This document shows positions 5,935 through 59,576 of a stretch of 64,000 nt of DNA, piece by piece. Origin of the DNA: a virus (taxonomy: Duplodnaviria > Heunggongvirae > Uroviricota > Caudoviricetes). The stretch lies in the IMG/VR virus record IMGVR_UViG_2909314774_000001; one strand, given 5' to 3'. Within the stretch, counting starts at the first letter, position 1, and the number at the start of each line of letters is the position of its first letter. The position numbers and the translations under genes were made by a program. The notes under the pieces were generated by a model. The model worked only from the letters and a program-made list of their open reading frames with translations. It had not been told where the DNA came from and did not search any database.

Positions 5935-6046
5935 ATAGACACAACCCCTTCTGACTTTAACAAACCCTAAAACAATTTGTTTTCTACCTTTTGTTGATTG
6001 AGATAATAAGCCACATAAGAAAACAAATTGTTTCGGAGTGGTTGAA

Positions 6047-7707: not shown

Positions 7708-8148
7708 GTGTAATTAGCTTAATCAATCAGTTGATAATGGCGGTCACAATTTGATTCTTTTCTATAAGAACCCGTTGATCGCCACTACTCCCATCCCATA
7801 CCAGCAATCACATCATTAAATATCAATAGGTTAACGTTGTTTATACCAATAAGAAAACAACTAAATAACAGATCAACGAAACATCAACGCTTTCTCCCGA
7901 TTTGGTCTAAAAAATTGACGTTATCACACATCACTTCTTATACCCGTAATTCTACGCAGCAGATAGCGCCACAGCGTCCAAATTTCACCACAAACGACTC
8001 AACACACTACCAACAAAAACACACGCTCAAAATCGCTCCCGTTGCGTTACACAACCATATAAACAACTTATTTTCAGGCATAACAAAACAACTAAATAAC
8101 ACATATGACATTCCCCAAAACAACCAACCTCTTTATGGCAGGCTACCG

Positions 8149-8930: not shown

Positions 8931-9300
8931 TAGCGAGAGGGAGAGTTGCGGCTACCCACCTGTAATGTGCGGGAAGAAGAGAGGCGCTCACGTGCAGGCG
9001 GACTAACTTACCGTTGGACTCCCTCTGAATGCCCAACTACAGCGTAATTGTGCCAGAGAGTCAGCGGGTCACAATCGATTTCAGTAGGTTTTCGGGGAGA
9101 AGAAAATTCTGCCCACCAGCCCTGCGGCGCGCGTAGGGCAGAATATCGTAAATACTGGTTCCGTGTCGTTCCCGGATACTCACTACCCAGCCTGGCTTTC
9201 CCGACATAAAATCCTTTTCCGCCTTTGTCTTATTGCGATAATAACACCAACAAGTAAACAACATGTTTAGACGTTATATAAACGAAGTGAGGATGAAGAG

Positions 9301-9987: not shown

Positions 9988-10141
9988 CCCCAACCAAAGC
10001 CAGCATTGCTGGCTTAACTTAATCTGTAGCCGCAGGGAAGAACCTGCATATCGCTCATGCGCCTGATCAATATGCTTTGTAGCCGCTTTCTTACTGGTAT
10101 TATTTACGCCATTGAGAAAACAAGTTGTTTACGGAGTTGTG

Positions 10142-10516: not shown

Positions 10517-10579
10517 TATTGTAAGTACATACTTACGATCATAGAATATAAAAATAACCAATACACTACGGAGAGTGAA

Positions 10580-11467: not shown

Positions 11468-11796
11468 ATATGGGCGATTTCAAGAAACGCCTGAAGGAAA
11501 GAGTCGAGATGGTCAGAAAGCAAAACGCCTCTTCTGTCATCAGATACGCAAGGCAGTTTAGTCGCAACAACAAATCAGTTGAGGAAAAGATCCTTAGCGT
11601 AATCGGGCGATAATTATTAAGGCCACCAGCATTGGTGGTCTTAAATGACTTTTAATAACCGAAGGTTAGTTTGAAACCTGGCTATCAACTTCCAGAACCT
11701 TTCTTGTGTATTCAGCCTGTATTAACTTCTTTTATGCCTTATCTACACTGCGATAATTACATCAACAAGAAAACAACATGTTTACGCAGTGAGGAT

Positions 11797-12210: not shown

Positions 12211-12287
12211 ACTTTGACGCCTTATTCGTACAACGATAATTAACACCAACAAGAAAACAATTTGTTATTTACGATAAGGAATTAATC

Positions 12288-14909: not shown

Positions 14910-15434
14910 TCAAAAAGGCAAAATTCGTTCAACCCAATCGAACAAAACAACTATTTTTCTACCGTTCTCGACACGTAGTGTAACCTGACAAGCATCTGCG
15001 CCTGCTGACACCCCCTCAATTTCACGGCCATCCGCCATGTACACCCTTATAGATTTGTTTGCTTTGTAGGCTTGGTTGCAAATTGCAAAAAAATCGCGGC
15101 GTGATGGCCGATTATCGACATAATCAGGGTGAACTGTTAGTCGACCTTTGAAATCGTGAGCGATACTGTCAACCACACCTGATTCAATTGTACTAATGCG
15201 TTCAAGTGGGAGCCTTATACGATTTTCTTTGTCAAAAGGGGCTGGGCAAAGGTCAACTTTGTTACGAGATGGCATGAGGCCATAAACGTACATGCAAAAC
15301 GCCTGGCCATCTTCGAGAGTGACCCTTACAGGAATTTGTTCTCTGCGCCAGAACATCAGTAGTTTTTCAACGTTAGTGTAATCTCGCGGCCAGAGTTCAG
15401 CTTGGATACCGTAGGTAATATCTTTGGTTGTCAT
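14910..15434 (-). CDS. hypothetical protein (about 175 aa from the internal Met MTTKDITYG)
   Basis: ORF-track frame; start chosen to abut the upstream lipoprotein gene. Confidence 0.45.
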   Translation of the reverse strand: MTTKDITYGIQAELWPRDYTNVEKLLMFWRREQIPVRVTLEDGQAFCMYVYGLMPSRNKVDLCPAPFDKENRIRLPLERISTIESGVVDSIAHDFKGRLTVHPDYVDNRPSRRDFFAICNQAYKANKSIRVYMADGREIEGVSAGADACQVTLRVENGRKIVVLFDWVERILPF

Positions 15435-15438
15435 GTCA

Positions 15439-15861
15439 TCACAGAGTTGTTGGCAGAATGTCGATGTCACCAGAATTGCTGGTGAACACCCTGAATGCTT
15501 TTGTGTCTCCATTCTTCAGAGTCGTTTCTCGCTCTTGACGAGCGGGGTTTAGAGCACATAAACCTGCACCTTCAAGAGATGCACCCACAATTAATTCTCC
15601 GGCATTTAAATGGAAAGTCGCTTTTTCGCCTGTAGCCAGTTTTGCGACAGTTTCGCCGTTGATGAAAATGGAAGCATCACATCCAGCTCCTACAAAACCT
15701 GTGTCTCTCATTACCACCAACGTAGCTGGCGCTGCGCTTTGATACTTGAACACTTTGGCCTGCGGTGCTGGTTTGGCGTCATGGATTGATATTGGGCGTG
15801 ATTGGCACGCGGCAAGCATCAACACTGGTAACGTTAGTAGAGGGAGAAGCGAGTATTTCAT
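15439..15861 (-). CDS. putative lipoprotein (lipobox LMLAAC after a signal peptide)
   Basis: MKYSLLPLLTLPVLMLAACQS: leader plus Cys lipobox. Confidence 0.6.
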   Translation of the reverse strand: MKYSLLPLLTLPVLMLAACQSRPISIHDAKPAPQAKVFKYQSAAPATLVVMRDTGFVGAGCDASIFINGETVAKLATGEKATFHLNAGELIVGASLEGAGLCALNPARQERETTLKNGDTKAFRVFTSNSGDIDILPTTL

Positions 15862-17770: not shown

Positions 17771-17852
17771 AAACCTCTTTCCTTAGTGCCTTTTGTATGT
17801 TATTTGGCTATTATAATAAGTAAGTGATTACTTAGTGGATTGTAGCAATAAA

Positions 17853-18533
17853 ATGGATGTAAAAATCACGATTTTGCAGGTTGATGTTGCCAACCTTCGC
17901 CCGAATACCTGGAACACCAATTCGGTTGGTGCGCAGAATTTTGAAAAACTGAAAGGTTCTATCGAAAAATTGGGCTTTTTTAAGCCAATTTTGGCTCGTG
18001 AACTTGAAGATGGATTTTTTGAAATCCTCGGCGGCGAACATCGCTGGCGTGCTGCTATTGAGCAAGGAATTTCAACGGTTCCGGTGCTTTCTGTGGGCAA
18101 AATTAGCGATGTCGTAGCTAAACAGATGTCACTGGTGGACAACGAGCGATACGGTGAAGACGACCAAATCGCATTGCAACGCTTCATTGAAGAAATTCAG
18201 TCAGAACTTGACTATCAACTGTCTGAAATCGCCCCGTATGACGACGAAATCTCGATGGTTTTAGCAAAAGAGGCGGCAATCGACCTTGAAGCACTGGAGG
18301 CGTTGTCTCGTGGTAGTGATGAGCCTGTCGATACCGACAAACGAGAGAAAACCGAACGTGTGGGGGCGGAACATCAGACCATGCGCTTCAAAGTAACTTT
18401 CGATGCGTCAGATCGTGTTGCAGAAACCATAAAAAACATCATCAAAGAGCAGGCTATTAACACCGGTAATGAAATGGAGAACGCTGGTGAGGCTCTGGTG
18501 TGGCTGGTCGACTACTACAAGGAGCGTATGTAA
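17853..18533 (+). CDS. ParB/Srx-fold (ParB N-terminal-like) protein 1
   Basis: GGEHRWRAA motif resembling the ParB GERRWRA box; start at MDVKITIL preferred over the track start. Confidence 0.6.
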   Translation: MDVKITILQVDVANLRPNTWNTNSVGAQNFEKLKGSIEKLGFFKPILARELEDGFFEILGGEHRWRAAIEQGISTVPVLSVGKISDVVAKQMSLVDNERYGEDDQIALQRFIEEIQSELDYQLSEIAPYDDEISMVLAKEAAIDLEALEALSRGSDEPVDTDKREKTERVGAEHQTMRFKVTFDASDRVAETIKNIIKEQAINTGNEMENAGEALVWLVDYYKERM

Positions 18534-19201
18534 TGACCAAAAAGTTTGAAATCGTATATCGCGACCCGGCAGATCTTATTCCCTATGAGATGAATGCCAA
18601 AAAGCATGATGAACAGCAGATCCGAGATCTGGCCGCAGCCATTAAAAAGCGCGGATTTGACCAGCCAATTACGGTCGATAAGAACGACGTAATTATTACT
18701 GGCCACGGCCGCCGTGAGGCTGCAATTTTTGCTGGACTTGAGCGCGTGCCGGTTATTGTTCGCGATGATCTGAGTGATGACGAGGTACGTGCAAAGCGCC
18801 TTGAAGATAACCGACTTGCCAGCATTGATTACGATGCAATTAAGCTACAGAAAGAGCTTGAGTCGCTTGTTCTGGACGATATCGAGGTTTTCGGCTTCGA
18901 AGAGCGTGAGTTGAACGTTCTCGTTGGCAGTATGACAGAAGAAATGGACACCGACTCGCTAGTTATCGATCTTGGCGAAGAAACTAAACGACAGAAGGAT
19001 GAACACACCGAGATCAGTCGTGAAGTTGCAGCGGAAGAAGTACGTGTTGTCGACGTATTGGGCTTTAAAACGCTCCCTGCTGGCTCTGCCATTGTTGTTG
19101 GTGATTTGCTTGCCCATATGGAAGAAATGACGGGAGAAAGCGGGGTAGACGCATTTGTGGCATATGCGGAGAAGATCTCTTCCGGGGAGATGGCTGCATG
19201 A
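18533..19201 (+). CDS. ParB/Srx-fold (ParB N-terminal-like) protein 2
   Basis: ITGHGRREAA motif; start overlaps the previous stop (TAATG). Confidence 0.6.
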   Translation: MTKKFEIVYRDPADLIPYEMNAKKHDEQQIRDLAAAIKKRGFDQPITVDKNDVIITGHGRREAAIFAGLERVPVIVRDDLSDDEVRAKRLEDNRLASIDYDAIKLQKELESLVLDDIEVFGFEERELNVLVGSMTEEMDTDSLVIDLGEETKRQKDEHTEISREVAAEEVRVVDVLGFKTLPAGSAIVVGDLLAHMEEMTGESGVDAFVAYAEKISSGEMAA

Positions 19202-20759: not shown

Positions 20760-21026
20760 ATGACGTTAACCGATAAACAAAAGGACATCATCAAAACGCT
20801 CAATCTCGGTTATGAGCGAGGTCATCTACTTGACCTGGACGAATTGCTTGAAGTTTTGCCGTACAAGACAACCAAGCAAAGTATCCAGTTCTCAATTCGC
20901 GCTCTGATAAAAAAGGGGCTGGTGGAGAAAGGGCATACGCGCCAACGCAGTGACAATCGCTATCACCGCCGAACTCTTGGGTTAACCACTTTAGGTCGAG
21001 CCAAAGCGAAGTTACTGGTGATGTAA
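20760..21026 (+). CDS. small basic protein, possible winged-helix DNA-binding
   Basis: 88-aa ORF, Lys/Arg-rich C-terminus. Confidence 0.4.
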   Translation: MTLTDKQKDIIKTLNLGYERGHLLDLDELLEVLPYKTTKQSIQFSIRALIKKGLVEKGHTRQRSDNRYHRRTLGLTTLGRAKAKLLVM

Positions 21027-21048
21027 TCGGTCTGGGAGCTTATTTAAA

Positions 21049-21106
21049 GACCTGCTTCTGTATATATAAATAATAAGTAACTTATTAAATATATACAGAA
21101 GCAGGC
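21049..21106. repeat. large near-perfect palindrome (CCTGCTTCTGTATATAT ... ATATATACAGAAGCAGG) with AATAAGTAACTTATT core
   Basis: 17-bp arms are exact reverse complements; a diverged second copy lies at 55941-56000. Confidence 0.8.
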
Positions 21107-21222
21107 TTAATAAGACATGCCCAGACCTAATTAAACACCCCAGAAAACAAGTTGGTTAGCAGATTCAGTAAACAAGTTGTTTTAGAGCGCATGGACGCGC
21201 TCTGTGTGTTTTAGAGGGATCT

Positions 21223-21855: not shown

Positions 21856-23111
21856 TGGCAATCCCGTCCTCGCTCAGTCTTGTGCAACTGCATTCTGGAC
21901 AGATGAAAGTCTTCCAGTCTCCGCATCGATTTAAAGTTGTTTGTGCTGGTCGACGCTGGGGAAAATCCCGGTTGTCGATCTCCACTATTATTCGTGCGGC
22001 GGCAAAGGAAAAAAAGCAAAGAGTCTGGTATGTCGCTCCTACTTACCAGATGGCTCGCCAGATTTTGTGGGACGATCTACAGGAAGTTCTGCCTCGTAAG
22101 TGGGTTAGGAAAAAGAACGACACCACGATGACAATCGTGTTGAAGAACGGTTCGGAGATCGCCCTCAAAGGTGCTGATAAGCCTGACACTCTGCGCGGCG
22201 TAGCGTTGCATTTTGTAGTGCTTGATGAATTTCAGGATATGAAGGCTGACACCTGGTACAAGGTGTTACGACCTACTCTTTCATCGACACGCGGCGGTGC
22301 ACTGATCATTGGTACGCCAAAAGGCTTCTCGGAATTTCACAAACTGTGGACTATAGGCCAGAACGTAGAGCTGCAAAGAAAGGGACAGTGGAAGAGCTGG
22401 CAGTTTGTAACTGCCGATTCTCCGTTTGTACCTACGGCGGAAATTGAAGCTGCTAAGAACGATATGGACCCGAAATCGTTCGCTCAGGAGTACCTGGCGA
22501 GCTTTGAGAACATGTCCGGGCGCGTTTACTACCCGTTCGATCGTAACGTGCATGTAAAACCGCTTCAGTTCAACCCTCGGTTGCCTATATGGGTAGGGCA
22601 GGACTTCAACATTGACCCGATGTCTTCAGTAATTTTGCAACCTCAGCCAAATGGTGAGCTATGGGCAATTGATGAATTGGTGCTCTTTTCCTCTAACACG
22701 GCAGAGGTTTGTGATGAGCTTGAGAGACGCTTCTGGCGCTGGAAATCACAGATAACGGTATTTCCAGATCCGGCAGGTGCTTATCGCCAACATGCTCGCG
22801 GGGAGTCTGACGTCGACATATTCAAAGAGAAGGGATTCTTACGTGTCGATTATTCGAAAAAGCACCCGCCAATTGCGGATCGTGTTAATGCTGTTAACCG
22901 AATGCTGATGACCGCATCTGGAGATATCCGGCTGTATATCGATCCGAAGTGCAAGCATTTGATTGATTCACTGGAAAAAGTCATCTACAAGCCTGGAACA
23001 CGAGATATGGATAAGACAGGTGGCATTGAGCATAGTGCAGACGCATTGGGCTATCCAGTACATCGTAGGTATCCAGTCAAAAACCGTGTTATTCTTGGTG
23101 GTTCTCGATAG
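21855..23111 (+). CDS. terminase large subunit
   Basis: Walker A CAGRRWGKS, Walker B VVLDEFQD, nuclease-domain-like C-terminal half. Confidence 0.85.
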   Translation: MAIPSSLSLVQLHSGQMKVFQSPHRFKVVCAGRRWGKSRLSISTIIRAAAKEKKQRVWYVAPTYQMARQILWDDLQEVLPRKWVRKKNDTTMTIVLKNGSEIALKGADKPDTLRGVALHFVVLDEFQDMKADTWYKVLRPTLSSTRGGALIIGTPKGFSEFHKLWTIGQNVELQRKGQWKSWQFVTADSPFVPTAEIEAAKNDMDPKSFAQEYLASFENMSGRVYYPFDRNVHVKPLQFNPRLPIWVGQDFNIDPMSSVILQPQPNGELWAIDELVLFSSNTAEVCDELERRFWRWKSQITVFPDPAGAYRQHARGESDVDIFKEKGFLRVDYSKKHPPIADRVNAVNRMLMTASGDIRLYIDPKCKHLIDSLEKVIYKPGTRDMDKTGGIEHSADALGYPVHRRYPVKNRVILGGSR

Positions 23112-23137
23112 GTAAGTAATTATCTAAGGTTATTCAA

Positions 23138-24712
23138 ATGGAATTGAACGACAAACAAATTAAGGATCTGGTGGCGCGACGCCACCCGGAATACGAAAAG
23201 AAAAAAGAACATTGGGACTTCCTCGCCAGCACTTACGCTGGCGGGCGTGGTTGGTTTACAGACAATATCTTTCGTTACTTTAAAGAGGGAGATCAGGAGT
23301 TTAAGGAGCGAGTTGAACGTGCTTATCGCTTCAACCACACTCGTGAGGTGGTAAACCTCATCAACAAATATCTCTTTAAAGAAGACATTCATAGAAATAT
23401 CGAAGAGGCACCAGAGCAGATCCGCAATTTCTGGAAACGTGCGACTCGCCAGAATGCCTCTATTGACTCATTTATGGCCGCTATTGATTTGCAGTCGTCT
23501 ATTTACGGTCGCATATGGGTTGTTGTCGATAGCACGATGAGTGGTGATGTTGAGTCAGTAGCTGACGAGAAAAAGAAAGATGCTCGCGCCTACGCCTACT
23601 GGATTTCACCTCAGCAAATGCTGGATGTGGCATGGGACGACGACGGGAATATGTTGTGGGCGTTAATTGTGGAAGTCGCTCGTGATGACGCAGATCCTTT
23701 TACTTCTACAGGTCAGGAATACCAACGTTATCGTCTGTGGACACAAAACGAGTGGTATCTGTTCCGTGAGGAAGTGAAGAAGGGCGCTGGTGGAGCAGGT
23801 CGCCGTCAGGCAAAAGTTATTTTAGAGGATAGCGGTGAGCATAATCTCGGCGTAGTTCCTGTGTTTCCTGTTGATTGTATTGGAGAAAGTGAATCACCGT
23901 ATTTCAGCCCATCGTTGATCGATGATATCGCTTATCTTGATCGTGCGGTTGCAAACTATCTGTCAAACCTTGATGCCATTATTCAGGATCAGACATTTAG
24001 CCAGTTGGCTATACCGGTACAGTCGCTTTTACCTGGTGATGAAAACCACACTAAAGTGCTTGAAATGGGCACAAAGCGAGTCTTCACCTACGATTCTGAA
24101 GGTGGAAACCAGCCGTTTTATCTGTCACCAGACCCGAAACAAGCTCAGATGATCATCACTACGATTAAGACGGTGATTAACGAAATCTACCATTCAGTTG
24201 GTGTAGCTGGTGAGCGAACGAAGCAGGACAACGCACAGGGAATCGATAATTCATCTGGTGCCGCAAAAATGTATGACTTCCAGCGTGTAAATAGCTTGCT
24301 TGTCACAAAAGCAGAGCGTCTGGAAAGGGCTGAACGCCAAATCATGCTACTGGTTGCGAAATGGATGGGGGTAGATCTGGACGAAGACCACTCTTTAATT
24401 GCATATCCAGAAAGTTTCGATATTCGTGGCCTTACTGATGAATTTTCTGTTGCCGAGAAACTGTCATTACTTCAGGCACCGGACTCTGTACGTCGTCACC
24501 AGATGGAAATGCTTATTGAGAAGATTTTCCCGAACATTACTGAGGCGATGAAAAAGGAATTTGATAAAGATCTCTTGAATTTTCCTCCAAAAAATGATCT
24601 AAATACCCTTGAAAATAAGTCAGTACTTACTTATGATCGTGGTGCAGCCCAAGAAAGCGGGCAAGATCAACCCCGAGGGAATGGGGACTCATCTACTCAA
24701 GAGAACGAGTGA
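23138..24712 (+). CDS. portal protein (putative)
   Basis: 524-aa ORF directly after the large terminase. Confidence 0.65.
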   Translation: MELNDKQIKDLVARRHPEYEKKKEHWDFLASTYAGGRGWFTDNIFRYFKEGDQEFKERVERAYRFNHTREVVNLINKYLFKEDIHRNIEEAPEQIRNFWKRATRQNASIDSFMAAIDLQSSIYGRIWVVVDSTMSGDVESVADEKKKDARAYAYWISPQQMLDVAWDDDGNMLWALIVEVARDDADPFTSTGQEYQRYRLWTQNEWYLFREEVKKGAGGAGRRQAKVILEDSGEHNLGVVPVFPVDCIGESESPYFSPSLIDDIAYLDRAVANYLSNLDAIIQDQTFSQLAIPVQSLLPGDENHTKVLEMGTKRVFTYDSEGGNQPFYLSPDPKQAQMIITTIKTVINEIYHSVGVAGERTKQDNAQGIDNSSGAAKMYDFQRVNSLLVTKAERLERAERQIMLLVAKWMGVDLDEDHSLIAYPESFDIRGLTDEFSVAEKLSLLQAPDSVRRHQMEMLIEKIFPNITEAMKKEFDKDLLNFPPKNDLNTLENKSVLTYDRGAAQESGQDQPRGNGDSSTQENE

Positions 24713-26522: not shown

Positions 26523-26554
26523 TCAGTGAAGTAGATAAGTAATTATCTATGTTA

Positions 26555-26584
26555 AAGGGTGGGCTATACGCCCACCCTTTTTGT
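26555..26584 (+). terminator. intrinsic terminator (AAGGGTGGGC tata CGCCCACCCTT + TTTT)
   Basis: strong GC stem with T-run after the capsid gene. Confidence 0.75.
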
Positions 26585-29718: not shown

Positions 29719-30101
29719 TGTTTATTGAAGCGTTTGCAAGTTTGATGCAGAAGGCAAAGATTGGCACGGTCGGGACTGACATTTTCTGTCACTACTTGCC
29801 TGCCAATGTGAAATCTGGCGTCCTGCTTATTAACCCAAATACCGGCATCAGCATCGATCATGAGCTACAGGGCTTTTATCACGAATCATTCACAATCATT
29901 GTGCGTGGTTCGTCAATTACTACGACGGTTGAGAAAGCCCATAAAATCATTGAGATGTTTCCAGTAGAGGAAACGGAATCTGGTGGTGTTTATTTTCGAC
30001 TTGTACGACCGATGGCGATGCCAATCATTTATCCCAAAAATGATGGGGCATTAATAGAAGCAGGCATTCCTGTTGAATTTGCTGGCTATTTATTGAATTA
30101 A
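29719..30101 (+). CDS. hypothetical tail completion protein
   Basis: ORF, start inferred to follow the previous stop. Confidence 0.35.
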
Positions 30102-30175
30102 CTCAATTAGTAAGTATATACTTACTATTAGCGCAATGAATGCGTAGAATTAACGGAAAAAGGAGTTTTCCATCA

Positions 30176-36602: not shown

Positions 36603-36651
36603 GTATCTGGATAAGTAAGTACTAATTTACTATCATTGTGGCGCTGACAGG

Positions 36652-37383
36652 ATGTTAGCGCCTACTTATTTCAAGGATGAAACAATGGGAATTAAAGCTG
36701 ATATTCAGAGCTTATCTCCCTCTGCACTCATTGAGTTGTTCGTACTGGATATGTCGAACACAACTTCAGGGGGGAAGCTATTCTTCCACGCCGGAACAAA
36801 CGAACTGATGCAACCGGTCGTCTGGCAAGGAGTGACATACGAGCCGTGGCCAATCAAAGCATCAGGCTTTGACAAAACTGGCCAGGGAACGTTGCCACGT
36901 CCAAAAATTCAGGTATCGAACTTTGCCGGAACTGTCTCTGCGGAAGTTCAGGCAAACGACGATCTTGTTGGCTGCCGCATTATTCGCAAGATGACACTGG
37001 CTCGCTTCCTCGATGCCGTTAATTTTAAAGACGGCAACCCAACAGCAGATCCAAACCAACATTTCCCGGATGAAATGTGGTTTATCGAACAGAAAACTCT
37101 CGAAACTCATCAGGTTGTCGAGTTTGAATTGTCCAGTGTGTTCGATTTGATGGGGGTGCAACTGCCGTATCGTCAGATCATTAAAAACACCTGCCCGTGG
37201 AAATACCGAGGGCCAGAATGCGGCTATACCGGTCCATATTTCGACAAAAATAACCAGCAGACGTCTATGTCTGGTGCGGATTACTGCACAAAACGTTATG
37301 ACGCCTGTAATGCGCGTCGGAATTATTTTGCCGACGGTGTGATCCATTTTGGCGGATTTATTGGAGCTACGCGGTATGGGTAA
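36652..37383 (+). CDS. minor tail protein (gpL-like)
   Basis: 243-aa Cys-containing ORF in the M-L-K-I-J order. Confidence 0.65.
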   Translation: MLAPTYFKDETMGIKADIQSLSPSALIELFVLDMSNTTSGGKLFFHAGTNELMQPVVWQGVTYEPWPIKASGFDKTGQGTLPRPKIQVSNFAGTVSAEVQANDDLVGCRIIRKMTLARFLDAVNFKDGNPTADPNQHFPDEMWFIEQKTLETHQVVEFELSSVFDLMGVQLPYRQIIKNTCPWKYRGPECGYTGPYFDKNNQQTSMSGADYCTKRYDACNARRNYFADGVIHFGGFIGATRYG

Positions 37384-38766: not shown

Positions 38767-41700
38767 TTGAACATGGAACAGTTCAAGAAGAAAAAGTTAC
38801 CGCTGTTTATTGCAGGTGCGGGTGGTAAAAAAAGCAGCAAAAGCTCTAGCCGTACACCGGTTGAAGCCGACGATACCGTAAATTCTCGTGCAATGGCCGC
38901 TATCCTCGATCTTCTTGGGGAAGGTGTAATTGGCGGCTTGGTAAATGGCGCAAGATCTATTTTTGTCGACGATCTGCCGATTGTAAATGAAGACGGTTCC
39001 TCCAACTTCAGCGGAATCACATGGGATTTTCGCGACGGTTCGCAAGACCAGACTCCAATGTCTGGCTTTGATTTCGTTGAAACGCCTAAATCCGTCAATA
39101 TCCAGTTAAAAAAAACACATTATGTAACGGTTTCAATCGATAACGATGAAGCTGATCGGGTTCGTGTCATCATGAAGTTTCCTTCTTTGCGAAGCATAGA
39201 TAAAAAAACTGGTGACACGAACGGTACAACCGTTGAGTACAAGTTCCAGATAGCAAATGGCGACTCAACATTTGTAGATGTGGTCGCAGAAGGTGAAAAA
39301 AGCGTTGGCATTAAGCTAACAGCAAAGAAGACAGGTGTTTATTACCGTAGCTATGAGCTGAAGCTGCCTAAGCCTGGACGCGCGTACAAGGTTCGTGTAG
39401 TCCGTATTACCGATGATAACAGCAGCCAGTATCTCTATAACGATACATGGGTGGACTCAATAGGTGAGATTGTAGATACACCGATGAACTACCCAAACTC
39501 TGTGCTGGTGGGTCTGAAGGTTAATTCTGAGCAGTTTGGTAGCACCATGCCATCTCGTTCGTATTTGGTACGTGGATTAAAAATTCGCGTGCCGTCAAAC
39601 TACAACGAGGCCAGCAACACTTATGATGGTGTATGGGATGGCACTTTTAAGCTGTTGTCTTCTTCAAACCCCGCGTGGATTCTCTTTGATTTGCTTACCA
39701 ATGCTCGATATGGCCTTGGTCAGTATGTGTCGGAATCTATGATTGACCTCGGCCAGCTATACCAGATCGGTCGATATTGTGACGAAGAGGTTGATGATGG
39801 CTTTGGTGGTAAAGAGAAACGCTTTGCAATCAATACGCAGATCACCAGTCGACAGGACGCATACCGATTAATTCAGGATATTGCCGGTGCATTCCGCGGT
39901 ATGGTGTTTTGGGCTGGTGGCATGGTTAACATCATGCAGGATAGCCCATCAGATCCGGTAATGATGTTTACCAACTCTAACGTCAAAGATGGATTGTTTA
40001 CCTATAAAGGTTCTGCGCGTAAAGATCGCCCATCCGTTGCGCTCGTAACCTACAACAACAAGGAGGACGGTTATAAGCAAAACATCGAGTACGTTGAAGA
40101 TCAGGACGCAATGCGCCGTTATGGTGAGCGTAAGACAGAAGTCGTAGCATTTGGCTGTACAAGCCGAGGGCAGGCTCACCGAGTTGGTTTGTGGCTTTTA
40201 TATACCGCCAGAATGGAGTCGGATGTAATTACATTTACTGCCGGCTTAGACGCGTCATTTCTGATGCCTGGTGAAACCGTTCTGATTCAGAACAAATATC
40301 GCGCAGGCAAACGTAACTCAGGTCGAATTGTGGCGTTTACCAAAAACAGCGTCACACTCGATGCGCCGGTGTCGTTAGCCAAAGGCGGCTGCTTTATTCG
40401 AATACTGAATCAGGAAGGCAAAATCGTTGAACGCGATGTTCTTGAAACTGGCGAAAATATAACAAAAGTTACGTTTTCAAAATCCCTGTCTTCGGCTGAA
40501 ACGCCTGTTTTGAACGGCGTCTGGACTATTACAGAACCAGACCTCGAACCTATGCGCGTTCGCATCGTTAACATCGCGCAGGGGGAAACGCCGGGTAGCT
40601 TTGACATCACCGCTGTTGAGAACAATCCGTCTAAATATGAGGCAATCGACAATGGTGCAACGCTGATCCCGCAGAATACGACGGTATTGGACCCAACTTA
40701 CTCCAAGCCATCTAATCTGCAAATCACTGAAGGGACTTATCTCTCAAGCCCGGGCAACCTGTCAGTAAAACTGACTGCAACATGGGAAGGGAAATCTCCA
40801 GAGTATTGGATCAGTTGGCGACGTTCTGATGAAAACAATGTATCGAACTGGCAATCGGCGCGTGTAACCGAAGAGCAATACGAAATCGTTAATGTCGCGG
40901 AGAATGGACGCTACGACTTCCAACTGTATGCGGTTTCATTCAACGGTAAAAAAACAGAAATTATCAGTACCGTTTATCAGGTGCTGGGCACAATGACACC
41001 GCCGGATGCACCAACGTCATTAACGGCCGTTGGAGACTATCGTAATGTGATACTGAATTGGGTTAATCCAGATTCGGTGGACCTTGATCACATTAATGTT
41101 TACGCATCCCAGACCAACAATCTGGATACGGCGAAACTGATCGCAGAGTCTGCAAGCACCACCTTTACACATGCTGGTCTTGGGGATAGCGAAACGTGGT
41201 ATTACTGGGTTCGAGCATCGAACAAGCGAGGTATGTTAAGTCCTCCGAACTCAAACTTGGGTACAGAGGCGACAACTCGCGATGTACTGTCGTTCCTGAC
41301 TGGCAAAATTACATCTTCCGAGCTTGGTCAGGCTCTGCTTGAGGACATCAACAGCAAAGCCTCTCAAGAAGCAGTTGACGAGTTAAATGAGCATATCAAC
41401 CAGAGCGTCGAATCTTTGGAGGGGGCGGTAAACGACGTTAAGGAAGATATAGCTGAATTAGATAAGCAGTTCAGCGATAACCTCGCGGATTTTGAAATAA
41501 AATTCAACGAGCGTAGCGATGCTTTGGAGAACGCACAAACCGAGCTTAAAGGTGAGGTTTCGGCAACGATTGACAAGGTCAATGAAGCGTTTGAAAAAAT
41601 TGATGCTACTGATGCTGCAATTGTTGAAATCGAAAACACCGTATCTGAACACGATAAAGCTCTCGCTAATACAGTCGAGGCAATAAAGGCTGCAAGAGAT

Positions 41701-42048
41701 GAAGCGGCGGCTCTTATTGCTAAGGAAAGCGAGGCTCGTGTTGAAGGCGATGCTGCAAACGCTAAACAACTGGAAGTGTTGCAGTCAACGGTAGAGGAAA
41801 GCTCCGCTGCCGTTGAAGAAATGAAAAAGACGGTTGCAGAGGTCGATCGTGCCAGTGCAGAACTGACTACGAACATTGAGGCGTTAGCCAAAACAAATAT
41901 TGACCTGGCTCTTCGTCAAGATGAAGACCAGCACAAGCAGATGGTCAATAACGCGAAGATCGCAACAACACAGAAAACCTTTGCTGATGATATGTCTGCA
42001 ATGGCCACGAAGGTTGAGGAAATTCGGGTAATGACTCCAACTTACTGA
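38767..42048 (+). pseudogene. central tail fibre / host specificity protein (gpJ-like), N-terminal part truncated by IS1
   Basis: reading frame runs into the IS1 left end at 42027 and stops 7 codons inside the IS; coiled-coil region begins before the junction. Confidence 0.8.
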
Positions 42049-42545
42049 TAGTGTTTTATGTTCAGATAATGCCCGATGACTTTGTCATGCAGCTCCACCG
42101 ATTTTGAGAACGACAGTGACTTCCGTCCCAGCCTTGCCAGATGTTGTCTCAGATTCAGGTTATGTCGCTCAATGCGCTGAGTGTAACGCTTGCTGATTAC
42201 GTGCAGCTTTCCCTTCAGGCGGGATTCATACAGCGGCCAGCCATCCGTCATCCATACCACGACCTCAAAGGCCGACAGCAGGCTCAGAAGACGCTCCAGT
42301 GTGGCCAGAGTGCGTTCACCGAAGACGTGCGCCACAACCGTCCTCCGTATCCTGTCATACGCGTAAAACAGCCAGCGCTGACGTGATTTAGCACCGACGT
42401 AGCCCCACTGTTCGTCCATTTCAGCGCAGACAATCACATCACTGCCCGGCTGTATGCGCGAGGTTACCGACTGCGGCCTGAGTTTTTTAAGTGACGTAAA
42501 ATCGTGTTGAGGCCAACGCCCATAATGCGGGCGGTTGCCCGGCAT
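42042..42545 (-). CDS. insB: IS1 InsB (expressed as InsAB' by -1 frameshift)
   Basis: translation matches the IS1 InsB frame; overlaps insA in the -1 frame. Confidence 0.9.
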
Positions 42546-42739
42546 CCAACACCATTCATGGCCATATCAATGATTTTCTGGTGTGTACCGGGTTGAGAAG
42601 CGGTGTAAGTGAACTGCAGTTGCCATGTTTTACGGCAGTGAGAGCAGAGATAGCGCTGATGTCCGGCAGTACTTTTACCGTTACGCACCACGCCTTCAGT
42701 AGCTGAGCAGGAGGGACAACTGATGGAGATGGAAGCCAC
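42464..42739 (-). CDS. insA: IS1 InsA
   Basis: [40 protein letters not shown] matches IS1 InsA. Confidence 0.95.
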
Positions 42740-42794
42740 GGGAGCACCTCAAAAACACCATCATACACTAAATCAGTAAGTTGGCACCATTACC

Positions 42795-44276
42795 GAAATT
42801 CGCGTAGAAATTGGCGAAGACATTAAGGCCAGTATTCTGGAAGAGTCCACCGCTCGTGCCGATGGCGATGAAGCGTTGGCAAAGCGTGTCACTCAGCTGC
42901 AATCTAAGTTTGAAGGAGATATCAGCGCGGCGATTAGTACAGAGCAGGAGGCTCGTACATCTGCCGATGAAGCTCTGACGACACAGATCACTCAGCTTGA
43001 GTCGAAAGTAAGCAACGATATCGTCGCAGCTATTAAGGAAGAGCAAGAAGCCCGAGCAACGGAAGATTCGGCTCTGGCAAGCCAGATCACCCAACTTCAG
43101 GCAAAGGTTGATGATGATATTTCTGCTGCAATACGTAGTGAGCAGGAGGCTCGAGCAAGCGGGGACTCTGCGTTAGCCAAACAAATAAACCAGCTTCAGT
43201 CAAAGGTTGACGGTGATATATCCGCTGCCATCACTCAGGAGCAGGAGGCCAGGGCAAGTGCTGACCAGGCGCTCTCACGAGAAATTAACAGCCTGCGAGC
43301 ACAAACCGGAACTGATATTGCCGCAGCGGTTGCTGTAGAGACAAAAGCAAGGACTGATGCCGATAGTGCATTGTCTACCCAGATTACGTCTCTTACAGCA
43401 AAAGCTAATGATCTCGAGGCGTCTCTTGCCAGAGAAACAACGGCTCGTGCAGATGGTGATACCGCTTTAACAAAAGAGGTTTCAAGTTTAAAAGCACAGA
43501 CAGCGAAAGATATTAGTGCGGCCGTTGCAGTTGAAACGCAGGCTCGAACTGATGCTGACTCGGCGTTGTCGTCTCAGATCACCAAGCTGACCTCTCAATA
43601 CAAAGAGGATATTAAAGCGGCTGTAGCAACCGAAACGAAAACGCGTACAGAGCAAGATGCTGCATTGGCGACTCAAATCACAAACTTAGAGTCTCAAACG
43701 GCAGCCAACATTTCCGCGGCGGTAACAACTGAAACGACAGCGAGAACGCAGGCAGATAATGCTTTGAGTGGGCGAATCGATACTCTGAAAGCAGAGGTGG
43801 ATGGAAATACCGCGACAATTCAACAGCAGGCAACAGCTATTGCTGATACCAACAAAAAAGTGTCAACCGCGTGGACGTTGAAAATGGAAACTTCAACGAG
43901 CGGAGGGCAGAAGTATGTTGCTGGTATTGCGCTTGGTATCGACACCACTGGCCTTTCTCAGTTTTTGGTGCAGGCTGACAGGTTTGGTTTGGTCAACTCT
44001 GTTAACGGGAAGATCACAACGCCATTTGTTATCGAAAACAGTATCGCCTATATGAATGGAGCGTATATCAAGGATGGCACAATCACCAATGCAAAAGTAG
44101 GCGATCTGCAATCTACCAATTTTGTTAGCGGTAGATCTGGATGGCGGTTCGGCAAAAATGGAACGCTTGAGATCAACGGTAATAGCGGCGGCAATGGGCG
44201 ATTGGTTATAAATGGTCAGCGGATTGACGTTTATGACGATAACAACGTCTTACGAGTAAGAATTGGCCGTCTGTGA
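42795..44276 (+). pseudogene. gpJ-like host specificity protein, C-terminal part downstream of IS1
   Basis: frame is continuous with 38767 once IS1 and one TSD copy are removed (..KVEEIR|VEIGEDIKAS..); about eleven tandem 30-36 aa repeats of the SAAI..EQEARA..D.AL..QI..L type. Confidence 0.8.
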
Positions 44277-44369
44277 TGGTGGAAAAAAAATTTTATATCG
44301 GTAAAAATAGGTAAGTATTTACTTAATGGCGGGCAAGGATAGCCCGCCAAATCAAGGAGCATATTCAAC

Positions 44370-49721: not shown

Positions 49722-50504
49722 GTGCCAATTGTCGGTGTTCCCGGTTGGATTGGGTCTTCGGCTGTCAGTGTGACAGGCCAGAGATGGATGAGTGCGGCTC
49801 GAACGGCGGTGCAACTGCCAGCGGCTGGTTCAATGTCTCAAATGGCCGGGCGATCTAAAGAAGTTCAGTACAGCATCGGTGCGAATCATAACTACAACAA
49901 AGACACACTGATCAACTATTTAAAATCCCAGGGGGCGACGCCAGTCGTTGTTACCATTACAGGGGATCTGGTGTCGTCCAGTAGCGGCGTGCCATGTTTA
50001 GATTTCCCGAGTTCACTTACCAACTCTTATATCAGCCTTGTAATCAACGCAGGTGTGACTGTCTATGGACGCGGTGGCAATGGTGGTAGTAACGCTGCCG
50101 GTGCTGCTGGTGGTAACGCAATTAATAATGGCATCGGTACACGCTTGCGTATTACGAATAATGGTGCAATCGCTGGAGGTGGCGGCGGCGGTGGCGGCGG
50201 TAACAGGGGTAAACTAATATTTGGTGGTGGCGGTGGTCGCCCATTCGGTGCTGGTGGGTCTTCCTCTCATATGAGTTCCGGTGCAACTGCTGGTACTATT
50301 TCCGCTCCTGGTAAAGGATCTGTTGGTGAGGGGTCTCTTAGTGCATATACAGGCGGTTCGGGTGGTAATGTCGGTGCTGCTGGAGGAAGATGTAATACTC
50401 AAGGTAACGGTACAGAATATAACGGCGGAGCAGCTGGTAAAGCCGTAACTGGCAACGCGCCTACATGGACTAAAGCTGGGGCAATTTACGGCGCTCATGT
50501 GTAA
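49722..50504 (+). CDS. glycine-rich tail-fibre-associated protein (possible adhesin or assembly factor)
   Basis: poly-Gly tracts (GGGGGGGGGN, GGGGGRPFGAGG); GTG start at 49722 after RBS AAAAAGGAG. Confidence 0.5.
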   Translation: MPIVGVPGWIGSSAVSVTGQRWMSAARTAVQLPAAGSMSQMAGRSKEVQYSIGANHNYNKDTLINYLKSQGATPVVVTITGDLVSSSSGVPCLDFPSSLTNSYISLVINAGVTVYGRGGNGGSNAAGAAGGNAINNGIGTRLRITNNGAIAGGGGGGGGGNRGKLIFGGGGGRPFGAGGSSSHMSSGATAGTISAPGKGSVGEGSLSAYTGGSGGNVGAAGGRCNTQGNGTEYNGGAAGKAVTGNAPTWTKAGAIYGAHV

Positions 50505-50566
50505 GTACTTACCTACCAAGTGTGGGCGTTTTATGATATAAAACCGCCATCCCGATTTGACGATTC

Positions 50567-52828: not shown

Positions 52829-53146
52829 GTATTCCTCCTGATGGCCGTGATGTAGGAAGGCCATCAATCTCCTCTGTTCAAACTGAGTTTTCGACTCAAA
52901 AATTACTTTAAAAGGCTATAGCCCATTACGTGTGCATTATCAAATTGTGTACGGCATATCACCGTACTTGTAATATAGAGGTCATTGTTACTTTTTTCAA
53001 CAGACAAATACAAGCTATGATTGCCAATTGTTAATCACAACCTACCATTTAACCTTTACACCGCAGCCGTAGGCATTTAGGCTATATCACATATAAGAAA
53101 ACAAGTTGTTTCAGACGATAATTATATACGCAAAGGGAACTCTCCA

Positions 53147-54225: not shown

Positions 54226-55932
54226 ATGGAATCGATAGAAGTATTTTTAAAAAATTTTTTGGACTCAGATCATCGGGTTGCTGTCATAAAAGGAAATTGG
54301 GGAGTAGGTAAAACGCATTATTGGAATAGCTTTTATACTAAACATTCTAAAAAATTAGATTTTAATGCATATTCATATGTTTCTTTGTTTGGAATAAATT
54401 CTATTGGAGACATTAAAAAAGCTCTTTATCATTGTGCCACACCAATTAATGAAAAGAAATATAAAGAACTGATTTTATCTGAAACGGATCGAACTATGAT
54501 TCGTTATAGAAATGGGTTTTGGGGATGGTTGAAATACAACTCCTTGTCAAAATTTTTAATACATTTTGGAAAGAACGATTTTTTTGGGTTCAAAACTGAT
54601 AATCTGCTGTCATCTCTTGAGTATAAATTTGTTAATAATTATTTGGTTTGCATTGATGATATTGAACGAAAAGGTAGTGCGCTAGAAATTAAAGAGATTA
54701 TGGGGGTAATTGATGAGTTGGCAAGAAGAAAAAATTGCAAGGTTGTTCTAATATTAAATGAAGATAACTTACATGAAGAAACTGCACAACAACAGTTTTT
54801 AGAGTATAGAGAAAAAATAATTGATGTGGAAATAAAATACGATCCCACGCCTGAGAAAAACTTAAGAAAAGTTTTTTATGAGACTGACCCTGATTTTCTT
54901 TTGTTAAAAAACCTAGTAAATGATTTAAACATCAAAAACATTAGAATATTAAATAAAATAAAATCATCTCTAGTTATATTTAGAGATGTGCTAAAGTTAG
55001 CAGAGGATAAGGTTAGAGAAAGTTTTATTAATAGATTGGTCTTATTTTCAGTGGTTTACTATTTTGGTGTTCCTAGCGTTGATTATGCTTCATTTAAGGA
55101 GTCAATCAAAAATATACATGCATTCGACTATATGTTAGATGATAAAGATGAAAAGGAAGAAGTTAACTCTGTATATTCATTTGTTAATAGCCTTGATGTT
55201 ATTTATGAACGAGCAGAAAGTGCTTTCGATGATGATATAGATTTTTACCTTAAGAACGGTTATGTTTCTTCTGAAAGCAATATTCTAAATATAATAAAAG
55301 AAAAAAATGAACAATATAGAGATAATAGGGTTTTATGTGAGGTTTATAAAATTTGGGATGTTTTTAGAAACTCTTTTAAAGATAATGAATCAGAGTTTAT
55401 TTTTCAAATTGAGCGCGTAATTAACGATAGTCTGTTGCGTATACCAATTGGACAGTTCGTAGGTTTAATAAATGTCCTAATTAAATTGGATAGAGATTGT
55501 AATAATATTATAGAGGCATATGCAGATGCTTTTGTTAATAAAGAAAATGCGTATGCTACATTTAATTCTTTGCGAGTAGAGATCTTCGGAAATGAAGAAT
55601 TAGGTTTCAGAATTGAAAAAAAATTGAAAGATAGAAATCCAGATGACTATAACTTAGATAAAATTATAAAAAAAATAGCTGGTGGAAGATTTAACCATAG
55701 TGATGTGAATATTCTTAACAGTTTTTCTAAAGATGATTACGTAAACTGGATATTATCCTGTGATCAGGATGCTTTGAATTTAGTAGAAGAGACTATGCTC
55801 AAGTTCAAGGGTATGCAACACCCGACAGACGAACAGAAGAGCATCACTGATAAAGCAATAGAAGCTTTGGAGGAAGTTGCTTCAAAATCAACACTTAATA
55901 AGCTGCGTGTTAATAAAATACTCAATCATTAA
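54226..55932 (+). CDS. KAP-family P-loop NTPase
   Basis: Walker A GNWGVGKTHYW (the G.WG.GK(S/T) form typical of KAP NTPases), Walker B LVCIDDIER; strongly AT-rich gene. Confidence 0.75.
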   Translation: MESIEVFLKNFLDSDHRVAVIKGNWGVGKTHYWNSFYTKHSKKLDFNAYSYVSLFGINSIGDIKKALYHCATPINEKKYKELILSETDRTMIRYRNGFWGWLKYNSLSKFLIHFGKNDFFGFKTDNLLSSLEYKFVNNYLVCIDDIERKGSALEIKEIMGVIDELARRKNCKVVLILNEDNLHEETAQQQFLEYREKIIDVEIKYDPTPEKNLRKVFYETDPDFLLLKNLVNDLNIKNIRILNKIKSSLVIFRDVLKLAEDKVRESFINRLVLFSVVYYFGVPSVDYASFKESIKNIHAFDYMLDDKDEKEEVNSVYSFVNSLDVIYERAESAFDDDIDFYLKNGYVSSESNILNIIKEKNEQYRDNRVLCEVYKIWDVFRNSFKDNESEFIFQIERVINDSLLRIPIGQFVGLINVLIKLDRDCNNIIEAYADAFVNKENAYATFNSLRVEIFGNEELGFRIEKKLKDRNPDDYNLDKIIKKIAGGRFNHSDVNILNSFSKDDYVNWILSCDQDALNLVEETMLKFKGMQHPTDEQKSITDKAIEALEEVASKSTLNKLRVNKILNH

Positions 55933-55940
55933 TAGATTAT

Positions 55941-56000
55941 GACCTGCTTCCGTATGTATTTAATAAGTTACTTATTATTTGTATATACAGAAGCAGGTCT
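55941..56000. repeat. second copy of the large palindrome (GACCTGCTTCcGTATgTA ... AATAAGTTACTTATT ... TATATACAGAAGCAGGTC)
   Basis: shares arms and core with 21049-21106; followed by TTTTAAAG. Confidence 0.75.
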
Positions 56001-56104
56001 TTTAAAGACACCCACCAGAACAAGTCCCTTCCGTTTCCACTTCCAAAAACTGCCACCAGTCGCTATCATCCGCTCATTGTGATAAGTAAGTAACTACCTA
56101 CCAG

Positions 56105-56854: not shown

Positions 56855-56897
56855 CTAATACTAGAAAACAATTTGTTTAAAAAACAAAGGAAAGCAC

Positions 56898-59498: not shown

Positions 59499-59576
59499 TA
59501 ACAATCACCTTTAAAATAAGTAGATGATTACTTATCTTTCTGTGAGAATACTTTCATCTGTTAGCTAGGAGTTGGT

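Follow-up and report, generated by a model that had tools for sequence, protein, structure and literature searches.

The gene junctions of an SSU5-type phage-plasmid of E. coli carry a dispersed palindrome that we tentatively interpret as an operator for a protein encoded by the element itself. The sequence analyzed (hereafter, the window) is a 64,000-nucleotide (nt) stretch of a Caudoviricetes virus (IMG/VR record IMGVR_UViG_2909314774_000001) that is 99% identical to Escherichia phage CMS-2020a, 98% identical to phage Cyrano (pLF82 of strain LF82), and 81% identical to Salmonella phage SSU5. An earlier note on this DNA had grouped these palindromes as class B and had proposed that they were a global regulator site or an RNA processing signal specific to the element. 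The sites are enriched, intergenic, conserved, and symmetric, some of them lie on promoters, and the motif co-evolves with the element that carries it. On balance, and with considerable reserve, we favor the view that the class B palindromes are double-stranded DNA operators for a symmetric, probably dimeric, element-encoded DNA-binding protein, for which candidates only can be named.

Definition and enrichment of the palindrome

A common register was derived from the sites of the window and of SSU5 aligned on their palindrome centers. This alignment replaced an expectation-maximization motif search on intergenic DNA, which had returned blurred copies offset by 4 bp. The conserved register is (A)TA(G/A)GTAAG-YR-CTTAC(C/T)TA(T), a palindrome of 18–20 bp with two-fold symmetry that is frequently lengthened to AATGATA...TATCATT. 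Its architecture is one of tetramer boxes, [TAGG][TAAG]-NN-[CTTA][CCTA], and the GTAAG and CTTAC arms appear to be spaced by N2, N6, or N10 because variant sites retain only a subset of the four boxes.

The window holds 12–13 matching loci, compared with 0.15–1.6 by chance. At up to three mismatches, GTAAGTANNTACTTAC gave 18 matches (~11 loci) where 1.6 were expected, a number that none of 100 shuffles reached, and the 18-mer TAAGTRAGYRCTYACTTA gave 9 where 0.15 were expected; the short string RTAAGTA occurs 31 times in the window, against 10 expected. In SSU5, 42 pattern matches (~27 loci) were found versus ~1.6 expected. The idea that such palindromes would be equally frequent in unrelated AT-rich DNA, which the earlier note had named as a possible refutation, was not borne out: shuffled sequences contain nearly none, and the Sinorhizobium plasmid pLM21S1, at 59% GC, has ~21 sites in 50 kb versus 0 in ten shuffles. 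When the exact 18-mer was sought across 596 Gb of genome contigs, the matches listed included scattered single copies in unrelated taxa at about the chance rate. Among those same matches, single exact 18-mers were commoner in the Pyrinomonadaceae and Blastocatellia (Acidobacteriota) than in other taxa; these copies may represent a regulatory palindrome of another, unrelated kind. The literature searched (on SSU5 regulation, SlmA with phage-plasmids, pLM21S1, and the motif strings) contained no description of the motif.

All 14 strings that the earlier note had listed are present within 1 nt of the positions given there, TAGATAAGTAATTATCTA beginning at 26532 rather than 26533. The note had called them perfect or near-perfect palindromes; those at 23109, 36610, 56081, and 59514 are clearly asymmetric. 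Membership also needs amendment, as 60388–60400 is merely a half-site, 21075–21090 and 55961–55976 are the tips of 63-nt long palindromes, and a member at 24616–24633 (TAAGTCAGTACTTACTTA), within the 3′ end of the portal gene, had been missed.

Position of the sites relative to genes and promoters

According to the Cyrano and SSU5 annotations, the window begins with small early genes and a minus-strand block (12.8–17.8 kb) whose last gene encodes a helicase. Genes for two ParB-like proteins, two ABC ATPases, and a small protein come next and lead to terS (window 21223, equivalent to Cyrano position 135), terL, and the portal, head, tail, tail fiber, and lysis genes; beyond these lie toxin-antitoxin genes with parA and, finally, a replication module. 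As proposed earlier, the sites are intergenic: 13 of the 16 pattern matches in the window fall between genes, while 10% of the window is intergenic (p = 6e-11). In SSU5, this holds for 21 of 27 loci, while 11.6% of the genome is intergenic (p = 4e-15). The sites lie 0–40 nt past the preceding stop codon and mostly 33–63 nt ahead of the next start codon; since TAAGTAAG has stop codons in two reading frames, some sites include the preceding stop codon itself. Only lytic genes have sites ahead of them; these include the genes for portal, scaffold, decoration, major tail, tail L, tail fiber, and holin as well as replication, nucleotide-metabolism, and ParB-like genes. The downstream genes named in the earlier note are consistent with the Cyrano annotation.

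Scans of the window found no site in the minus-strand block, nor before parA or the toxin-antitoxin genes. The minus-strand block, the parA/toxin-antitoxin regions, and the small early genes have another repeat family, AAGAAAACAAnTTGTT (families D2 and D4). A repeat that we presume to be class A (...GATAAT...AAGAAAACAAnTTGTTT) was observed at 5952–6037, 7837–7866, 9232–9272, 10100–10129, 11747–11787, 12237–12266, 21121–21161, 53075–53115, and 56848–56877, ahead of small early genes, terS, parA, and dnaB, a distribution complementary to that of class B. The class A repeat looks like a promoter with an operator, AAACAAnTTGTTT.

Sigma-70-like matches are depleted in the structural region (11 versus 22.8 expected), and 3 of the 7 on the plus strand fall on sites (24609–24637, 30093–30122, and 36608–36636). 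The overlap takes different forms: a site occupies the spacer at 24609–24637, the −10 element at 30093–30122, and the −35 element with the spacer at 10519–10547. In SSU5, a site near 55700 lies within TTGAAA-17-TATCAT (~55690–55718). The promoter-like sequence TTGAAA-17-TATGAT at 24609–24637 matches 10 of 12 consensus positions, and the site in its spacer belongs to a 35-nt block that is invariant in ~40 sequence variants, even at synonymous positions, while adjoining codons vary.

The arrangement does not correspond to P1-type late promoters, in which the palindrome stands at a fixed distance of about −22 from the −10 element, as the spacing varies here and a −10-like element is often absent. 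Neither are the sites intrinsic terminators, being A/T-rich with no T run; separate terminators lie 3′ of some of them (26557, 36640, and 50512). A general module made of a site and a downstream hairpin was considered and rejected, as it holds in only part of the sites (26532, 30108, 36612, and 44308), and the sequence 3′ of the sites has no lower folding energy than random 40-mers do, whether in the window, in SSU5, or in pLM21S1.

Recognition at the DNA or RNA level

The other half of the earlier proposal was an RNA processing signal. More broadly, the palindromes might work at the RNA level by marking transcripts for processing or stability, either as RNase III or RNase E sites or as the target of an RNA-binding protein, such as a FljA-like protein. 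Some features agree with this. The sites lie within polycistronic clusters, often over a stop codon or ribosome-binding region and often beside hairpins, and the element encodes a homolog of FljA, the flagellin mRNA repressor. However, folded as RNA, the sites form stems of only 7–8 A/U-rich pairs (−0.2 to −8.3 kcal/mol); two sites that are good as DNA give no fold whatever. RNase III sites, in contrast, are double-stranded RNA stems of about two helical turns. Nor is there a wobble bias: arm mismatches on the coding strand comprise 21 G:U versus 31 A:C, the variable R/Y pair is A:C in 28 cases and G:U in 10, the R/Y positions of the two arms vary independently, and variants with two A:C mismatches are kept by whole lineages. 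Selection on an RNA hairpin would favor the opposite mismatch pattern, and the motif is therefore most simply read as double-stranded DNA by a symmetric protein. The downstream hairpin, moreover, is not general, and the FljA-like gene has no homolog at the syntenic position of pLM21S1. We thus set aside the RNase III part of the earlier proposal, and consider any action of the palindromes in RNA very improbable. What stands of that proposal is the global regulator site: the motif recurs at lytic-gene junctions as a symmetric DNA element under strong conservation, and it overlaps promoters in part.

The FljA-like protein was rejected as an RNA-level binder, as pLM21S1 has the same motif and no syntenic homolog. 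The gene itself (14910–15512, minus strand) encodes a close homolog of the phase-1 flagellin mRNA repressor FljA (PF03614, E = 2.5e-84) and is kept in SSU5 and Cyrano; its product may silence host flagellin.

Conservation across the supergroup and motif replacement in RHEph10

Conservation was followed in 76 related loci retrieved with the major tail protein as a query, and more distant relatives were taken from viral contigs found by an exact-pattern scan for the motif. Salmonella and Klebsiella relatives keep the motif at orthologous gene junctions. Many viral contigs have several copies of it, yet no nucleotide similarity to SSU5; these contigs show the same gene order, 25–57% protein identity, and TAAGTAAG-NN-CTTACTTA at the same junctions. 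The distant motif-bearing contigs match plasmids of Sinorhizobium, Rhizobium, Methylobacterium, and Shinella. In the motif contigs without SSU5-like proteins (L087 and L116), terminase genes and one helix-turn-helix gene were all that was found. The motif is thus not specific to this element, as had been suggested, but marks the entire SSU5/pLM21S1 supergroup in gamma- and alphaproteobacterial hosts. Judged from these sequence comparisons, its conservation is unusually deep.

Rhizobium phage RHEph10 has been described as a relative of pLM21S1 (PMC5537653). Across the syntenic genes compared, the two share 40–81% protein identity (66% for TerL), yet the first 50 kb of RHEph10 contain none of the TAAGTAAG-NN-CTTACTTA sites. 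Instead, RHEph10 (L325 and L326) has an intergenic palindrome family of its own, (T)CAGTCAATATTGACTGA / TCAATCAATATTGATTTACC, with the build [TCAG][TCAA]-TA-[TTGA][CTGA], which leads us to distinguish motifs of the TAAGTAAG type from those of the TCAGTCAA type. The RHEph10 palindromes stand before terS, at TerL/portal, and before the major tail, tail L, dnaB, cobT, and cobS genes, and in many cases a GC hairpin or a terminator lies 3′ of them. As the motif has been swapped as a set at conserved positions, it is presumably recognized by a factor carried along with the element, and we read the pattern as co-evolution of the motif with such an element-encoded factor.

Proposed function and candidate binding proteins

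The sites fill short gaps between lytic genes, both early (replication and nucleotide metabolism) and late (head, tail, and lysis). Once occupied, they would block RNA polymerase at many points simultaneously, and the lytic programme would thereby stay silent during plasmid life. We infer repression rather than activation, as we do the identity of the binding protein: promoters that are already near consensus would have no need of an activator, and a site that covers them at varying positions fits a repressor better.

Activation and antitermination are the other conceivable effects, and activation was weighed in detail. The palindromes could be activator sites or promoter elements at which an element protein, either an activator comparable to P1 Lpa, Mu Mor/C, or P2 Ogr or a sigma-like factor, recruits RNA polymerase. 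The clustering of site-to-start distances at 33–63 nt, a typical leader length, would agree with this, as would the position of sites after terminators (10521) or where gene modules begin. In all variants of the major tail junction, a hairpin begins 7–8 nt past the central TATACT of the palindrome, as a stabilizing hairpin at a transcript 5′ end would, and a sigma-70 region-2 protein is encoded by RHEph10 and some motif-bearing contigs. However, the distance to −10-like elements is not fixed, the −35, spacer, or −10 being covered in different promoters, no conserved element is found 3′ of the site in GC-rich relatives, and the best promoters around sites already approach the consensus. The motif also precedes early and late genes alike, which would be unusual for an activator of one class, a palindrome would fire both ways, and the sigma-like protein lacks a homolog in SSU5 and the window. 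An activating role is unlikely in our judgment.

Candidates for the protein that reads the motif come from an operon that is flanked by sites and conserved everywhere. Located upstream of terS, it encodes ParB1 and ParB2, a pair of ABC-type ATPases, and an 88-amino-acid (aa) protein, and the last of these, a winged-helix protein, is together with the ParB-like proteins the best candidate for the binder. The predicted structure of the 88-aa protein has a predicted local distance difference test (pLDDT) score of ~86 at residues 1–55, which form a helix-strand-helix-helix-wing arrangement, and the structures that resemble it most are those of the LexA DNA-binding domain, HrcA, DtxR/IdeR, and MecI (probability 0.99, E-values weak). 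It is conserved in pLM21S1 and is the most diverged operon protein between pLM21S1 and RHEph10 (41%); one position of its presumed recognition helix is a serine in all carriers of the motif and an isoleucine in RHEph10. ParB1 and ParB2 belong to Pfam ParB_N, match Spo0J, Noc, and KorB structurally, and are conserved in pLM21S1 at 38% identity. A conserved strand-helix-helix segment at the C terminus of ParB1 resembles a ribbon-helix-helix by eye; an AlphaFold model built from close homologs only has a pLDDT of 39, too low to be informative. The sigma-like gp045 of RHEph10 (sigma-70 region-2) was rejected as the cognate factor on account of its absence from SSU5 and the window.

Several observations weigh against operators of an element-encoded protein. 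The many enriched copies near lytic promoters are what dispersed repressor operators would show, but promoter-like overlap is seen at just 4 of ~12 window sites, and no plausible −10 element was found at others, such as TerL/portal and tail fiber. Terminators or hairpins directly follow several of the sites, a feature that a simple operator does not require. The binder is represented by candidates only: although the E. coli and Rhizobium elements have the same motif, the winged-helix protein shows just moderate conservation of its recognition helix between them, and ParB1 has no recognizable DNA-binding domain (a profile search of its C-terminal domain against the PDB returned nothing).

The ParB-like genes raise another possibility, namely that the palindromes are parS-type loading sites for these proteins, which carry a CTPase-fold domain and would spread from there across the entire genome, with a role in partition, packaging compaction, or KorB-like long-range silencing. 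In every lineage, the two ParB_N genes lie directly behind a site; ParB-family proteins bind palindromes of 13–16 bp, the best family matches are Noc and ParB, and KorB is among the structural relatives. On the other hand, neither a helix-turn-helix nor another DNA-binding domain was detected in ParB1 or ParB2, a separate parA cassette exists whose promoter has the class A motif and not class B, and 30–40 loading sites would be unprecedented. We regard ParB loading as quite unlikely.

Resemblance to SlmA-binding sites

SlmA is a nucleoid-occlusion factor of the TetR family. The palindromes could be SlmA-binding sites (SBS) through which the SlmA of the host acts as a silencer, couples segregation to division, or blocks division upon lytic amplification, an explanation that we hold to be unlikely. 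The 12-mer recognized by SlmA, GTGAGTACTCAC, requires G1, T2, A4, and G5, while position 3 can be any purine and position 6 any pyrimidine; changing G3 to A gives a dissociation constant (Kd) of ~60 nM versus ~50 nM (PMC3020112). A 20-bp SBS consensus, AAGTAAGTGAGCGCTCACTTACGT, is also available (PMC4423959). SlmA binding is able to repress a reporter, and SBS on a multicopy plasmid are toxic (PMC3573117); a V. cholerae promoter is activated by SlmA (PMC5519180). The protein binds as a dimer of dimers (PMC4117426), which would fit the tetramer-offset build of the motif.

The similarity between the two motifs is close. The phage core GTAAGYRCTTAC, with TAA/TTA flanks, fits the published 12-mer, its central tetranucleotides being GTAC, GTGC, GCAC, and GCGC. 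These flanks equal those of the 20-bp consensus (AAGTAA-GTGAGCGCTCAC-TTACGT), and the site at 62870 has the same right half, ATTTACTTAC, as the chromosomal SBS17 (PMC4423959). The GTRAGYRCTYAC core with TAAGTGAGCGCTCACTTA flanks shares 16 of 18 positions with the phage consensus TAAGTAAGYRCTTACTTA, both differing positions being the purine position that SlmA tolerates, and both systems consist of dispersed palindromes. Site density in the phage-plasmid is ~1 per 5–7 kb, compared with 24 SBS per E. coli chromosome (2 of the 24 intergenic), so that the phage sites are ~30 times denser; they are also almost all intergenic, are kept in alphaproteobacterial elements, and are replaced in RHEph10.

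Other evidence argues that SlmA does not account for the motif. Phage-plasmids of Rhizobiales, hosts that are not known to have SlmA, conserve the identical motif, and RHEph10 carries a replacement motif at the same junctions, which points to an element-encoded factor. On these two grounds, host SlmA was ruled out as the universal binder. Within the window, the 12-mer rule gives 7 matches versus 1.4 expected, with just 1 exact match and 4 at one mismatch, and the enteric outer half-site TAGG differs from GTAAG at position 4, which SlmA requires. No SlmA homolog was found in 2.8 Mb of element DNA with a SlmA query verified against PDB entry 3NXC, and any SlmA bound to these sites would therefore be that of the host.

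The SlmA match is thus most likely a coincidence of sequence, with side-effect binding that may occur in enteric hosts, where SlmA is predicted to bind several sites. A stronger form, in which 25–40 operator palindromes double as high-affinity SlmA sites in enterobacterial hosts and the phage-plasmid is coated with SlmA, seems improbable to us. If true, such a coat could keep the septum off unsegregated plasmid copies, hundreds-fold lytic amplification of SlmA-activating DNA could stop FtsZ and division without a dedicated phage inhibitor, and SlmA could compete with the regulator of the element, tying the lysis-lysogeny decision to the cell cycle. The match is a concrete lead to how a mobile element might be connected with the control of cell division in its host.

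Relation to known operator systems

By analogy, the motif may work like the dispersed operator sets of phages P1, phiC31, and L5/Bxb1, and perhaps like KorB or N15 SopB, while sequence, symmetry, copy number, or partner protein sets it apart from each of these systems. The stoperators of L5 and Bxb1, reportedly described by Brown et al. in 1997, are asymmetric 13-bp sites that are bound by the gp71/gp69 repressor, keep one orientation to transcription, and act as roadblocks. As in the phage-plasmid, tens of sites for one repressor lie in short intergenic gaps among early and late lytic genes, and genome-wide silencing has been proposed; unlike stoperators, the palindromes are two-fold symmetric, and some of them lie over core promoters. 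P1 C1 has at least 17 operators, which are asymmetric, and the phiC31 repressor binds ~18 conserved inverted repeats (CIR), which are 17-bp palindromes; many operators of the two sets are located at promoters. Both sets are scattered over a large temperate genome, and P1 is likewise a phage-plasmid. Their sequences are unrelated to the class B motif, and P1 late genes are under separate control by Lpa, whereas one motif precedes early and late genes in the SSU5-type element. The KorB operators (OB) of IncP plasmids number 12 and the sopC centromere sites of N15 number 4. These are also dispersed palindromes that serve a ParB-family protein with a plasmid-wide effect on transcription, and ParB-like genes adjoin a site here; however, ~25–40 sites are present, no DNA-binding domain was detected in the ParB-like proteins, and the parA cassette lies elsewhere with another motif.

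Clinical E. coli, Klebsiella, and Salmonella commonly harbor SSU5-like phage-plasmids (for example, pHCM2 and pLF82/Cyrano). To our knowledge, nothing is known of how they keep ~70 lytic genes silent as plasmids. The motif would supply a cis-element for this silencing, as well as a handle for a regulator search and for mapping transcription units. It also allows the supergroup to be recognized in metagenomes from DNA alone, and the natural specificity swap in RHEph10 can be used to identify the binder by covariation.

Individual sites

The sites of the window and the candidate binder genes are listed in Table 1.

Table 1 Class B sites, long palindromes, and candidate binder genes in the window
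Feature	Coordinates	Strand	Location	Remarks	Orthologs
GTAAGTA-CA-TACTTAC (arms GTAAG-N6-CTTAC)	10521–10536		Just 3′ of a terminator-like hairpin	Exact match in the GTAAGTANNTACTTAC search; inside sigma-70-like TTGTAA-17-TAGAAT (10519–10547; −35 element and spacer)	SSU5 93166
TAAGTAAGTGATTACTTA	17817–17834		Divergent region, helicase gene (−)/ParB-like gene (+)	One mismatch to the 18-mer	Ahead of ParB1: SSU5 99799; pLM21S1 73543; L142 6663
ParB1 and ParB2, candidate binders	17853–19201 (ParB1 17853–18533; ParB2 18533–19201)	+	First genes of the operon flanked by sites		
Winged-helix protein, 88 aa, candidate binder	20760–21026	+	Last gene of the operon, immediately before the terS palindrome		
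Long palindrome, 63 nt	21043–21105		Upstream of terS	Core ATAAGT-A-ACTTAT at tip; RNA fold −28.9 kcal/mol	
TAGGTAAGTAATTATCTA	23109–23126		TerL/portal junction	TerL stop codon within site	
TAAGTCAGTACTTACTTA	24616–24633		Within portal gene 3′ end	Occupies the 17-bp spacer of TTGAAA-17-TATGAT (24609–24637)	
TAGATAAGTAATTATCTA	26532–26549		3′ of major capsid gene	Followed by strong terminator hairpin 26557–26580; downstream −20.5 kcal/mol	
TAGTAAGTATATACTTACTA, perfect 20-bp palindrome (site flagged in the earlier note)	30108–30127		Upstream of major tail gene	Overlaps TTGAAT-18-TATACT (30093–30122), covering the −10 element	
TAAGTAAGTACTAATTTA, degenerate site	36612–36629		Upstream of tail L gene	Followed by hairpin 36640–36662; overlaps TGGATA-17-TATCAT (36608–36636)	
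TAGGTAAGTATTTACTTA	44308–44325		Upstream of tail fiber gene	Followed by GC hairpin (−17 kcal/mol downstream)	SSU5 21938
Site with core GTAAGTACTTAC (50501–50512)	50498–50515		Upstream of holin gene		SSU5 27475
Long palindrome, copy 2	55943–56005		Between KAP NTPase gene and replication module	Followed by TCTTTT; −23.1 kcal/mol	
TAAGTAAGTAACTACCTA	56083–56100		Replication module, 13 nt ahead of its first gene		SSU5 33601
TAAGTAGATGATTACTTA, variant site	59517–59534			Outer arms alone retained	SSU5 38179
TAGGTAAGTACAA, half-site	60388–60400	+		Weak family member	
TAAGTATTTACTTACTTA	62870–62887		Downstream of gene 62568–62858, before tRNA region		SSU5 41774

The core of the perfect palindrome upstream of the major tail gene, GTAAGTATATACTTA, is kept in almost all of 41 sequence variants, 3 of which have a single change in the left arm, while the adjoining untranslated bases vary. 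A small hairpin (30131–30148) with orthologs in L008–L083 separates this palindrome from the ribosome-binding site of the gene, and the arms of the hairpin covary among lineages (GCGCA/TGCGT, GGCACC/GGTGCT, and GTGTGTC/GACAC). At the TerL/portal junction, most relatives have a perfect palindrome, AGATAGGTAAGTACTTACCTA, within variable untranslated sequence, and the right arm has decayed in the lineage of the window. The association of the capsid-gene site with a terminator is repeated in SSU5 (5472) and pLM21S1 (83970).

The site upstream of the holin gene is the sole exact match of the window to the SlmA 12-mer rule, GTRAGYRCTYAC, and its SSU5 ortholog is a perfect 28-bp palindrome. It shares with the site at 56081 the extension CCTACCA(A/G)GTG, as the earlier note had observed. 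The variant site at 59517 lies just upstream of TGTGAGAAT, which, read from the sequence, resembles an extended −10 promoter element.

The two 63-nt long palindromes, which are 94% complementary, form a special case, as their tips bear a related core with 1-nt spacing. At the terS position, distant relatives have a standard site within a long palindrome (L103 9105, L120 8536, and L142 11280) whose outer arms differ in sequence and retain their pairing. It is possible that the 63-nt palindromes are a regulated terminator or a pac-related or origin-related site.

Other features of the window

An IS1 element was observed at 42021–42800, with InsA (91 aa), the IS1 transposase (167 aa), and 29-bp terminal inverted repeats. 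It cuts the J-like tail tip gene in two (38767–42048 and 42876–44276), and this copy of the phage can probably no longer form infectious particles. In the whole window, 22 copies of the Chi sequence GCTGGTGG were counted versus 1.4 expected, 15 on the plus strand and 7 on the minus strand, a strong enrichment that presumably reflects protection of replicating or packaged DNA from RecBCD. Between parA and the replication module, a region of 31% GC (54226–55932, plus strand) codes for a 568-aa nucleoside triphosphatase (NTPase) of the KAP/STAND type, and this gene looks like an inserted accessory defense gene.

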